DNA of 15,513 bases from a virus. Lineage: Duplodnaviria > Heunggongvirae > Uroviricota > Caudoviricetes. Shown one piece after another: positions 9,875 through 15,513 of the stretch. The stretch lies in IMG/VR virus record IMGVR_UViG_2684622769_000003, one strand, 5' to 3'. Below the pieces are notes generated by a model. The model ran no database searches, had not been told where the DNA came from, and saw only the letters and a list, made by a program, of their open reading frames with translations. Position 1 is the first letter of the stretch. Each line of letters opens with the position of its first letter. A program made the translations under genes and the position numbers.

Positions 9875-13620
<3,746 letters not shown>

Positions 13621-13646
<26 letters not shown>

Positions 13647-14166
13647 TCAGCAACCCCGGTATCAGTTCATCCAGCGCGGCTGCTTTGTTCATGGCTTTGA
13701 TGATATCCCGTTTCAGGAAATCAACATGTCGGTTTTCCAGTTCCGGAAAACGCCGCTGCACCGACAGGGGGATCCCGTCGAGAATACTGGCAATTTCACC
13801 TGCGATCCGCGACAGCACGAAAGTACAGAATGCGGTTTCCACCACTTCAGCGGAGTCTCTGGCATTTTTCAGCTCCTGTGCGTCGGCCTGCGCACGCGTA
13901 AGTCGATGGCGTTCGTACTCAATAGTCCCTGGCTGGAGATCTGTCTCGCTGGCCTGCCGCAGTTCTTCAACTTCCCGGCGCAGCTTTTCGTTCTCAATTT
14001 CAGCATCCCTTTCGGCATACCATCTTATAACGGCGGCAGAGTCATAAAGCACCTCATTACCCTTGCCACCGCCTCGCAGAACGGGCATTCCCTGTTCCTG
14101 CCAGTTCTGAATGGTACGGATACTCGCACCGAAAATGTCAGCCAGCTGCTTTTTGTTGACTTCCAT
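13621..14166 (-). CDS. nu1: Terminase small subunit Nu1
   Basis: ORF track 13621..14166, 181 aa (MEVNKKQLADIFGASIRTIQNWQEQGMPVLRGGGKGNEV...), matches lambda gpNu1 with an N-terminal winged-HTH; ATG at 14166..14164. Confidence 0.95.
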
Positions 14167-14343
14167 TGTTCATTCCACGGACAAAAACAGAGAAAGGAAA
14201 CGACAGAGGCCAAAAAGCCCGTTTTCAGCACCTGTCGTTTCCTTTCTTTTCAGGGGGTGTTTTAAATAAAAACATTAGGTTACGGCGAAGAAGAACGGAA
14301 ACGCCTTAAACCGGAAAATTGTCATAAATAGCGAAAACCCGCG
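14167..14343 (-). other. cosB-like terminase binding region with three R-element repeats
   Basis: A perfect 16-bp inverted pair, agaaaggaaacgacag at 14191..14206 and ctgtcgtttcctttct at 14232..14247, plus a third related copy (aacggaaacgcc) near 14292..14303. These sit between the Nu1 start and cosN, as the gpNu1 R sites do in lambda. Confidence 0.75.
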
Positions 14344-14355
14344 CGCCTTCCGCCC
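14344..14355 (-). other. cosN-equivalent 12-mer (cohesive-end position); reads GGGCGGAAGGCG on the minus strand, not the canonical lambda 12-mer
   Basis: Flanked by ...ACAGGTTACG upstream and CGCGGGTTTTCGC... downstream in phage orientation, both as in lambda; the 12 nt between them were read directly. Confidence 0.7.
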
Positions 14356-14391
14356 CGTAACCTGTCGGATCGCCGGAAAGGACCCGCAAAA

Positions 14392-14406
14392 TGATAATAA
14401 TTATCA
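14392..14406. promoter_or_regulatory. Perfect 7-1-7 palindrome TGATAATAATTATCA, identical to the Fur-box core consensus; function unproven
   Basis: Read directly; part of a 17-bp perfect palindrome atgataataattatcat at 14391..14407, about 36 bp outside cosN and about 150 bp upstream of the plus-strand RHH gene. Confidence 0.3.
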
Positions 14407-14554
14407 TCTACATGTCACAACGTGCATCTACGCCATCAAACCACGTCAAATAATCAATTATGACGCAGGTATCGTATTAATTGATCTGCATCAACTTAAC
14501 GTAAAAACAACTTCAGACAATACAAATCAGCGACACTGAATACAGGGCAACCTC

Positions 14555-14788
14555 ATGTCAACGAAGAACAGAACCCGCAGAACAACAACCCGCAACATCC
14601 GCTTTCCTAACCAAATGATTGAACAAATTAACATCGCTCTTGTTCAAAAAGGGTCCGGGAATTTCTCAGCCTGGGTCATTGAAGCCTGCCGCCGGAGACT
14701 GTGCTCAGAAAAAAGAGTTTCGCCTGAAGCAAACAAAGAAAAGAGTGACATTACTGAATTGCTCAGAAAACAGGTTAGACCAGATTGA
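14555..14788 (+). CDS. Small ribbon-helix-helix-like DNA-binding protein, YnfO/YlcI-like (DUF3950-type prophage protein)
   Basis: ORF track 14555..14788, 77 aa (MSTKNRTRRTTTRNIRFPNQMIEQINIALVQKGSGNFSAWVIEACRRRL...); basic N-terminal tail, then a beta-strand plus two helices typical of RHH; opposite strand to the late operon. Confidence 0.7.
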   Translation: MSTKNRTRRTTTRNIRFPNQMIEQINIALVQKGSGNFSAWVIEACRRRLCSEKRVSPEANKEKSDITELLRKQVRPD

Positions 14789-14845
14789 AGCAATTTAGAT
14801 AATCGTGCAGACTACGCCCCCTCATATCACATGGAAGGTACTACA

Positions 14846-15256
14846 ATGGCTCAGGTTGCCATTTTTAAACAAATATTCGATAAAGTGCGAAATAATTTAA
14901 ACTATCACTGGTTTTATTCTGAACTAAAACGTCACAATGTCTCACATTACATTTACTATTTAGCCACAGAGAATATTCATCTTGTTCTTGAAAACGATAA
15001 TACGGTTTTAATAAAAGGACAGGGTAAGGTTGTAAATGTAAGATTTTCAAAAAATAAATGCCTTATAGAAGCCACCTTAAAAGGATTCAAATCAGGAGAG
15101 TTATCATTTTACGAATACAGGAAAAATCTTGCTACAGCAGGGGTTTTCAGATGGATTACAAATATCCACGAAAACAAAAGGTATTACTATACCTTTGATA
15201 ATTCATTACTCTTTACTGAGAACATACAGAACACTACACAAATATTTCCGCACTAA
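14846..15256 (+). CDS. YdfO/YbcV-like prophage protein (DUF1398 family), function unknown
   Basis: ORF track 14831..15256; I prefer the second ATG at 14846 ([43 protein letters not shown]...), which has GGAAGG 6-12 nt upstream, giving 136 aa; visibly AT-rich compared with the structural genes. Confidence 0.75.
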
Positions 15257-15264
15257 ATCATAAC

Positions 15265-15293
15265 GTCCGGTTTCTTCCGTGCCAGAACCGGAC
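15265..15293 (+). other. Hairpin-forming inverted repeat just after the YdfO-like stop (8-bp stem gtccggtt / aaccggac, 13-nt loop)
   Basis: Read directly; no U-tract follows, so it is not a canonical intrinsic terminator. Confidence 0.3.
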
Positions 15294-15301
15294 TCGCTGG
15301 C

Positions 15302-15511
15302 ATGATGAAATATGTGTACCCGGTAACCCCGGTGTGCATCGTTTTTGATTATTCCCGCACACTCGCGCAGAAGGAGTTCCCCGTCGGGCTACGGTCTCTG
15401 TTAATACGGGAATACGGCGACGATTGGATTTGCCCCTATATTTCCAGACATCTGTTATCACTTAACCCATTACAAGCCCGCTGCCGCAGATATTCCCGTG
15501 GCGAGCGATAA
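15302..15511 (+). CDS. Hypothetical small protein (69 aa), unassigned
   Basis: ORF track 15302..15511 (MMKYVYPVTPVCIVFDYSRTLAQKEFPVGLRSLLIREYGDDWICPYISRHL...), complete with stop TAA at 15509..15511; no family recognised and no clear RBS checked. Confidence 0.25.
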   Translation: MMKYVYPVTPVCIVFDYSRTLAQKEFPVGLRSLLIREYGDDWICPYISRHLLSLNPLQARCRRYSRGER

Positions 15512-15513
15512 CC

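Follow-up and report, generated by a model that had tools for sequence, protein, structure and literature searches.

The window, by which we mean the whole 15,513-nt stretch of DNA that was analysed, derives from a lambdoid phage or prophage and lies in reversed orientation relative to the lambda map. The features with which we are concerned are as follows.

11721-13646, minus strand: terminase A, 54.1% GC.
13621-14166, minus strand: Nu1, 52.7% GC.
14344-14355, no strand assigned: 12-nt cosN-equivalent segment, placed by alignment to lambda, Qin and locus L157, outside the two genes.
14356-14554, plus strand: conserved non-coding leader of 199 nt, from cosN to the ynfO start codon.
14379-14385, within the leader: cosQ-like AGGACCC.
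14391-14407, within the leader: palindrome ATGATAAT-A-ATTATCAT.
14453-14485, within the leader: inverted repeat ATCAATTA...TAATTGAT.
14555-14788, plus strand: ynfO-type gene (ORF1), 77 aa, 44.4% GC, YlcI/YnfO family (DUF3950).
14717-14718, plus strand: mosaic junction in ynfO (codon 54/55), with lambda-like cos-proximal sequence to the left and the Qin-type tail plus cargo to the right.
14769-14785, plus strand: PdhR-box-like palindrome AACAGGTTAGACCAGAT in the 3' end of ynfO, overlapping the -35 element of the ydfO promoter-like site.
14776-14803, plus strand: sigma-70 promoter-like site for ydfO (TAGACC, 16-nt spacer, GATAAT; 9/12 in a consensus scan).
14846-15256, plus strand: ydfO-type gene (ORF2), 136 aa, DUF1398, 31.4% GC.

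The first-pass annotation had described two plus-strand ORFs, opposite in direction to Nu1 and terminase A (both minus), and these are present on the anti-late strand at the lysis/packaging junction. Their placement beyond cos agrees with the positions of the cosN equivalent and the cosQ-like motif, and the second gene is AT-rich as stated (31.4% GC for ydfO and 44.4% for ynfO against 52.7-54.1% in Nu1 and terminase A). One boundary required revision. ORF2 had been called from 14831 to 15256 (plus strand, 141 aa); the gene is real and its end holds, and the start is likely to be 14846, giving 136 aa, as a GGAAGG Shine-Dalgarno sequence lies 7 nt upstream of this codon and the RefSeq genes at this position are 411 nt long. 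No Shine-Dalgarno sequence was found before the alternative ATG at 14831. The resulting gene order, nohA/Nu1 – cos – ynfO – ydfO, is that of the Qin prophage of Escherichia coli K-12.

The cosN and cosQ equivalents were located from the lambda positions of these elements. The cosN equivalent, CGCCTTCCGCCC (also written GGGCGGAAGGCG), differs at 5 of 12 positions from that of lambda, AGGTCGCCGCCC; this variant was seen in the window and in six IMG/VR loci, and the lambda-type core AGGTCGCCGCCC at about 85 loci. The leader is identical at 187 of 199 positions to that of locus L157 and at 189 of 199 to those of both lambda and Qin. As synonymous sites of the neighbouring ynfO core differ from L157 by 46%, the leader is more conserved than that core, which implies functional DNA, presumably with packaging signals, transcription signals or both. 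Packaging termination signals, or a promoter or operator for ynfO, would be candidates; a promoter scan of the leader gave no strong sigma-70 match on the plus strand upstream of ynfO. The lambda-type leader is missing where the YnfO core adjoins an HNH-type packaging module, and its palindromes should thus not be taken as YnfO operators; autoregulation of YnfO through them is speculative. The only Rfam matches at the E-value threshold, to miRNAs and falling on the cosB region, were judged spurious.

Assignment of the small gene to the YlcI/YnfO family is supported by profile scores above curated cutoffs (72.8 bits against a cutoff of 25 for Pfam PF13132, DUF3950; 35.2 bits against 30 for NCBIfam NF041551, YlcI_YnfO_N), by a match to PHROG 949 (E 6e-33) and by its divergent position beside nohA/Nu1 and cos. 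Residues 1-50 form a nearly invariant basic N-terminal core with a net charge of about +7.5, behind which at least five unrelated C-terminal tails occur in the family; the tail in the window is of the Qin type (CSEKRVSPEANKEKSDITELLRKQVRPD). Comparison of the 50-codon core with diverged alleles gave pS of 0.46-0.52 and pN of 0.04-0.06 (pN/pS about 0.1), and the core is protein-coding and under strong purifying selection. It is also a conserved anchor gene that always adjoins the first packaging gene divergently, this gene being Nu1 in 54 sampled IMG/VR contigs and HNH, as part of an HK97-type HNH-TerS-TerL module, in 12.

Whether YnfO is a ribbon-helix-helix (RHH) protein, as the first-pass annotation had proposed, was examined by modelling and profile comparison. 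An AF2 monomer, made from a shallow alignment and with the strand lying beyond the scope of a monomer model, has an extended basic arm (residues 1-18) followed by helices at 19-32 and 34-53, with a core pLDDT of about 89. Alignments with hhalign gave P values of 0.016 for Arc, 0.0038 for AmrZ (31% identity across 35 columns) and 0.0012 for a combined Arc/Mnt/AmrZ profile. All three share a single register on YnfO, in which N14-x-R16 falls in the putative strand, P18 opens helix A, G33 follows fifteen residues on and S38 caps helix B. Low-Z structural matches were to RHH antitoxins of ParD/ParE, RelB/RelE and MazE6/7 type modules. Searches of Pfam with 19 YnfO family members at E values up to 10 returned DUF3950 and no RHH family, and PDB sequence searches, with the single sequence and with a profile, returned only noise. 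The model and the weak profile alignments thus make an Arc-like RHH DNA-binding protein a plausible, not a proven, identity for YnfO. The DUF1398 part of the earlier call was borne out.

The downstream protein matches Pfam PF07166 (DUF1398; YdfO/YbcV/YcgX) with 147 bits against a cutoff of 22, across profile positions 1-119 of 119, and E. coli YdfO of known structure (PDB 2HH8) with an E value of 1.4e-69 and about 76% identity. That structure has been available since 2006 (NMR), and the protein of the window shows the same two alpha-alpha-beta-beta-beta repeats. Positions conserved in the YdfO alignment are chiefly aromatic, aliphatic, Arg, Thr, Asn and Gly; no column of conserved Asp, Glu, His or Cys was found, leaving the protein without a catalytic signature, nor was there a hydrophobic segment, signal peptide or membrane segment. 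The basic charge of YdfO is not kept in its chromosomal relatives. YdfO is a soluble (alpha-alpha-beta-beta-beta)x2 protein with an orphan fold that has no relative of known function. The gene evolves with a pN/pS of 0.24-0.37.

An exhaustive HMMER search across 1.84 billion cluster representatives detected YdfO relatives in only 189 clusters, and all credible hosts were Enterobacteriaceae. Reports of ynfO or ydfO genes outside this family represent contamination with lambda control DNA. Within E. coli the region is common: a megablast search with positions 14400-15300 gave matches in 3802 of 5426 complete genomes, 2654 of them at a coverage of at least 80%, and the best were 99.9% identical, with the RefSeq labels 'YlcI/YnfO family protein' and 'DUF1398 domain-containing protein'. 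Both are already catalogued 'y-genes', which lambda has as well as some 70% of the complete E. coli genomes. Some deposited lambda records have no feature at the YlcI-like ORF.

A literature search found no published function for YdfO or YnfO. Transcription of ydfO in K-12 is strongly and transiently induced by ionic liquid (PMC4077768). The one functional claim that could be traced, protection against oxidative stress by over-expression of YdfO (PMC4077768), was discounted, as the paper cited for it does not contain ydfO and reports YfdK, YfdO and YfdS of CPS-53; the claim appears to be a confusion of the names YdfO and YfdO. An 'essential' call for ydfO from TraDIS (PMC5821084) was likewise not accepted as essentiality, since strains with deletions of the whole of Qin are viable, as are DLP12 deletion strains (PMC3105296). 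A more than 1000-fold increase of ybcV/ybcW with T4 MotB was rejected as H-NS evidence because BL21(DE3) carries lambda DE3, the late transcripts of which could have been assigned to the near-identical ybcV and ybcW. The lambda homologue of ydfO, p78, is dispensable for lytic growth, its knock-down giving an efficiency of plating of 1.9 (PMC10695390).

Between ynfO and ydfO lies a spacer of 57 nt (to 14846), and a block with regulatory features extends from the 3' end of ynfO into it. The order GGTnAGACC...GATAAT...GGAAGG is kept upstream of the DUF1398 genes of the window, Qin and lambda. The palindrome at 14769 is the sole occurrence of GGTNNNACC in 14300-15513 and is orthologous, with one spacer base changed, to K-12 AAcaGGTcagACCAgaT, which is listed as a PdhR genomic-SELEX site, 'ynfO > ydfO < gnsB' (PMC7660256). 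The same study found mRNA of ybcV to be 10-fold lower in a pdhR mutant. The box agrees with the PdhR consensus at 10 of 14 positions and was missed by a search at up to three mismatches; because of this weak match, it is the K-12 experiment, rather than the motif, that supports a PdhR site. By analogy with K-12, ydfO may be under the control of host PdhR in this phage. A scan for an intrinsic terminator-like site on the plus strand after 15256 found none.

Comparison with lambda clarified how the region was assembled. By blastn against a lambda-type reference (genome O276, locus L001), positions 14356-14717 match the lambda right end at 95% identity, a stretch that reaches codon 54 of its YlcI-like ORF. 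After this, the window has 54 bp where lambda has 613 bp, the latter made up of the tail of lambda type, p79/ybcW in opposite orientation and an annotated N-terminal extension of p78. Homology with lambda returns at 14772 at 83% and stops at 15425, before bor, the window itself ending at 15513. The ydfO upstream block begins exactly where the homology to p78 resumes. The mosaic junction that the first-pass annotation had suggested, inside or just after the small gene, was recovered inside it, and a junction of this kind recurs across the family. The accompanying statement that the downstream gene differs needs correction, as this gene is not foreign to lambda: p78 is its homologue (103 of 136 residues identical), and what is extra in lambda is p79/ybcW and bor.

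A pattern scan of IMG/VR for the YnfO core gave an arbitrary sample, unranked by similarity, in which 70 contigs extended 1.3 kb or more beyond the core on its downstream side. A DUF1398 gene was present within this 1.3 kb in 24 of the 70 and absent from the other 46, in which PerC-like, TonB_C-like or Bor genes, or directly Rz, were found. Gene-context look-ups likewise placed PerC, TonB_C or lysis genes behind DUF3950. The type of YnfO tail goes with the downstream cargo across these 70 contigs, and a CS(E/V)KRVS-type tail was followed directly by DUF1398 in all 17 sampled contigs that carry it. The tail has thus been swapped together with the cargo behind it, and the 17 of 17 would also fit a functional match between tail and cargo. 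DUF1398 in turn occurs without the small gene. When one genome of each species was scanned, about 37 diverged DUF1398 genes (28-53% identity) came to light in Enterobacteriaceae chromosomes. Those of Escherichia/Shigella were of the YcgX type, and Citrobacter, Klebsiella, Kluyvera, Pseudocitrobacter and Salmonella diarizonae had further copies; no YnfO core or Nu1 lay within 4 kb of any of these genes. In lambda and DLP12 the small gene and the DUF1398 gene are parted by a gene on the opposite strand. The two genes therefore assort independently and are accessory. Horizontal acquisition of the cargo as a moron, as the first-pass annotation had argued, agrees with the variable content between the YnfO core and Rz, with presence or absence of the region among related phages, and with the strong AT-richness of ydfO (31% GC against 53-54%).

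The two genes are the same pair as Qin ynfO-ydfO. We consider it probable that each of them is an accessory unit of its own, set at the point where the lysis and packaging regions of a lambdoid phage or prophage meet. Their neighbourhood would then stem from a recombination junction and not from a joint function. The data do not indicate a role of the region in defence, toxin-antitoxin activity or packaging, and these alternatives are considered below.

Expression from the prophage of cargo for anti-phage defence or superinfection exclusion appears unlikely. The setting is one in which it might be expected, with variable cargo at the lysis/packaging junction in related phages (Bor, PerC-like, TonB_C-like) and an AT-rich gene on the anti-late strand that most E. 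coli genomes carry. Against this, PADLOC-DB v2 gave no match for YnfO and, as the best for YdfO, Csx23 at noise level (E 0.023, 12.7 bits); nuclease, NTPase and membrane features were not found in the proteins, the literature search revealed no reported defence phenotype, and stand-alone chromosomal DUF1398 copies occupy non-phage contexts.

The first-pass annotation had likened the genes to an antitoxin-toxin or regulator-effector pair. Were this a type II-like arrangement, the RHH core of YnfO would bind DNA and the Qin-type tail would neutralise or co-regulate YdfO. A small basic DNA binder followed by a larger gene is the expected layout, a constant N-terminal domain with a variable tail mirrors RHH antitoxins, the CS(E/V)KRVS-type tail precedes DUF1398 in 17/17 sampled contigs, and ydfO was insertion-free in one TraDIS study (PMC5821084). 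Co-occurrence is, nevertheless, far from obligate, with the YnfO core lacking DUF1398 in 46 of 70 contigs and DUF1398 standing alone at about 37 chromosomal loci, and lambda p78 is found with a different YnfO tail and an opposite-strand gene in between. The 57-nt spacer and the 3' end of ynfO, moreover, provide ydfO with a promoter-like site and a PdhR box of its own. In YdfO, residues of catalytic type are not conserved, and neither its family nor its fold is that of a known toxin. Strong toxicity of YdfO is argued against by its production for NMR (2HH8) and by a glycogen screen in which YbcV was over-expressed from the ASKA library. The two genes are inherited independently, which does not support a matched toxin-antitoxin pair, and we regard this arrangement as quite improbable. 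A ybcV::kan Keio mutant exists, which bears on dispensability rather than toxicity.

A function in the virion or in packaging, as a head or envelope protein or as a cos-binding accessory factor, is suggested by database labels (PHROG 413, 'head protein'; lambda p78, 'putative envelope protein'), by the constant position of the YnfO core beside the first packaging gene and by the unusual conservation of the cos-proximal leader, but is highly improbable given that plating was undiminished by knock-down of lambda p78 (PMC10695390), that DUF1398 is missing from about two thirds of the sampled YnfO-bearing phages, that both genes run opposite to the late operon, that YnfO also lies beside HNH-type modules without a lambda cos flank, that small cos fragments are enough in cis for lambda packaging, and that neither a signal peptide nor a membrane segment is present in YdfO, its lack of a hydrophobic segment leaving both labels without support here.

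Under the preferred reading of two independent accessory units, the YnfO core may fold as an Arc/Mnt-like RHH dimer and act as a sequence-specific DNA-binding repressor, for which leftward (anti-late) transcription from the conserved leader would be the likeliest target. The ydfO gene is an AT-rich, variably present DUF1398 moron with its own promoter-like region. From the putative PdhR site in that region, we infer that its expression may be set by host regulators (PdhR, as shown in K-12) and not by the phage late programme. YdfO itself could be a binding protein, small, soluble and without enzymatic activity, through which host physiology is modulated in the lysogen.

A broader possibility, to which we give only a small chance of being correct, is that lambdoid phages, lambda among them, share in YnfO an Arc-like regulator that has so far gone unrecognised, which is fixed at the lysis/moron–packaging boundary in both the Nu1-type and the unrelated HNH-type packaging system and controls transcription across this boundary, with the exchangeable tail able to tie it to the neighbouring cargo. 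If so, YnfO could gate leftward moron expression or modulate the entry of late transcripts into the head genes, and the Qin-type tail could bind YdfO. Both proteins are ubiquitous yet have no assigned function, and the anchoring of YnfO across two packaging systems, the linkage between tail and cargo, and the conserved promoter block with its PdhR box provide leads for their study.

Among known regulators, Arc/Mnt of phage P22 and AmrZ share with YnfO an ungapped spacing from strand to helix B, and are similar in size and in having a basic N-terminal arm. The sequence and structure matches are, however, not significant, and YnfO is located at the packaging junction, unlike the P22 immI region. 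Modules with RHH antitoxins (ParD/ParE, RelB/RelE, MazE6/7) likewise place a small RHH-like protein with a variable tail upstream of a larger gene. They differ in that here the partners assort independently, an internal promoter-like region separates them and the downstream protein has an orphan fold without a toxin signature.

The closest relationships are with lambdoid elements. The lambda right end and DLP12 (ylcI-ybcW-ybcV-borD) have the same leader and first 54 codons of the small gene (95%), and lambda p78, with DUF1398 and 103/136 identical residues, occupies the same strand and the same slot between cos and the lysis genes. Lambda differs in having another 15-aa YnfO tail, an extra segment of about 560 bp with p79 on the opposite strand, bor downstream and the canonical cosN. 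In Qin, ynfO (b4533) and ydfO (b1549) lie beside nohA in an identical layout and with identical lengths (234 and 411 nt), colinearity with the window extends across 13638-15294 at 93%, 75 of 77 YnfO residues are identical, and the promoter-like block and PdhR box are kept. The YdfO proteins, in contrast, share just 102 of 136 residues, so that Qin carries a different DUF1398 allele from that of the window; and whereas Qin is a decayed prophage, the terminase genes of the window are intact.

The cargo downstream of ynfO was predictable from the type of its C-terminal tail, and the recombination boundary within the gene lay at about codon 50, where the variable tail follows the conserved core (loci L164-L243 and L157-L163 of those compared with the window).

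Types of YnfO C-terminal tail and what accompanies each
CS(E/V)KRVS: DUF1398
INEK(H/Y): opposite-strand PerC-like genes
ATDATHL: a TonB_C-domain gene and an HNH-type packaging module
STE(S/N)SGMNYI: Rz directly next
TSEKRAYTSI (lambda-type): ybcW and DUF1398, or bor, or Rz

The lambda homologue of ydfO, p78, is annotated as a protein of 177 aa (928-1461 of the lambda-type locus, L001) that includes an N-terminal extension (…IMQTTRPRITWKVLPMAQVAIF). The homologous stretch of the window (14805-14848) has a GTG at 14805 that is one base out of frame with ydfO. This offset argues that the annotated p78 extension is non-coding and that the conserved start of the DUF1398 gene would be the ATG of MAQV….

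Beyond the 3' end of ydfO, homology with lambda over the p78-bor spacer reaches 15425 and then stops (window 15258-15513), and the closest loci, L008 and L009 among them, gave no detected bor 3' of ydfO. Two ORFs overlap one another here:

15258-15461, - strand, ORF with a weak PHROG match
15302-15511, + strand, ORF with a weak PHROG match

The matches were to phrog_6954 ('Rz-like spanin', E 1.7e-11) and phrog_20197 (E 2e-10). Both ORFs look like poor coding candidates, and the window stops at 15513.

The DUF1398 and YnfO matches that a scan of genome contigs gave in Pseudomonas, Kitasatospora, Brevibacillus, Arcanobacterium, Flavobacterium and elsewhere consist of the right end of lambda. In these loci (L015-L036, L038 and L047-L051), the YnfO core, p79, p78, bor and Rz are about 100% identical to those of lambda, and in many cases the contig is about 3.5 kb or 48.5 kb long, with the Arcanobacterium match sitting on a 'plasmid' of 3566 bp. 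On this sequence evidence, they look like contamination with lambda control DNA; the size of about 3.5 kb fits that of the Nanopore control amplicon. Many error-ridden ENA proteins also derive from sequences of 3.4-3.6 kb, and such contamination probably lies behind these and behind papers that place the two families in S. aureus, Arcanobacterium and a fungus.

Only one statement on the function of YdfO was found in the literature, namely that its over-expression raises resistance to oxidative stress (PMC4077768, citing Wang et al. 2010). We reject this role because the source paper credits the effect to three CPS-53 prophage proteins, YfdK, YfdO and YfdS, and makes no mention of ydfO (Wang et al. 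2010, PMC3105296); the claim is probably a mix-up of gene names that later papers have repeated. K-12 ydfO has also been classed as 'essential only by TraDIS' (PMC5821084), contrary to the viability of whole-Qin deletions (PMC3105296). This status is probably an artefact, arising, for example, if reads align to more than one of the paralogues ydfO, ybcV and ycgX or if protein occludes AT-rich DNA.

Two features lie between Nu1 and ynfO:

14185-14252, cosB region, rich in inverted repeats, between cosN and the Nu1 start
14344-14355, cosN equivalent, reading CGCCTTCCGCCC

Rfam miRNA matches in the cosB region were sub-threshold (at most 25.5 bits against gathering scores of 72-98); these matches, and the terminator-like hairpins found there on both strands, are noise of the repeat structure rather than signs of an RNA gene. 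The cosN equivalent differs from the lambda segment, AGGTCGCCGCCC, at 5 of 12 positions, and the cohesive end would therefore be GGGCGGAAGGCG. This variant is in the minority, being found also in six IMG/VR loci (L088-L091, L098 and L121), whereas the lambda-type core is present in about 85. L008, from E. albertii, encodes a terminase A 100% identical to that of the window, yet its cosN is lambda-type.
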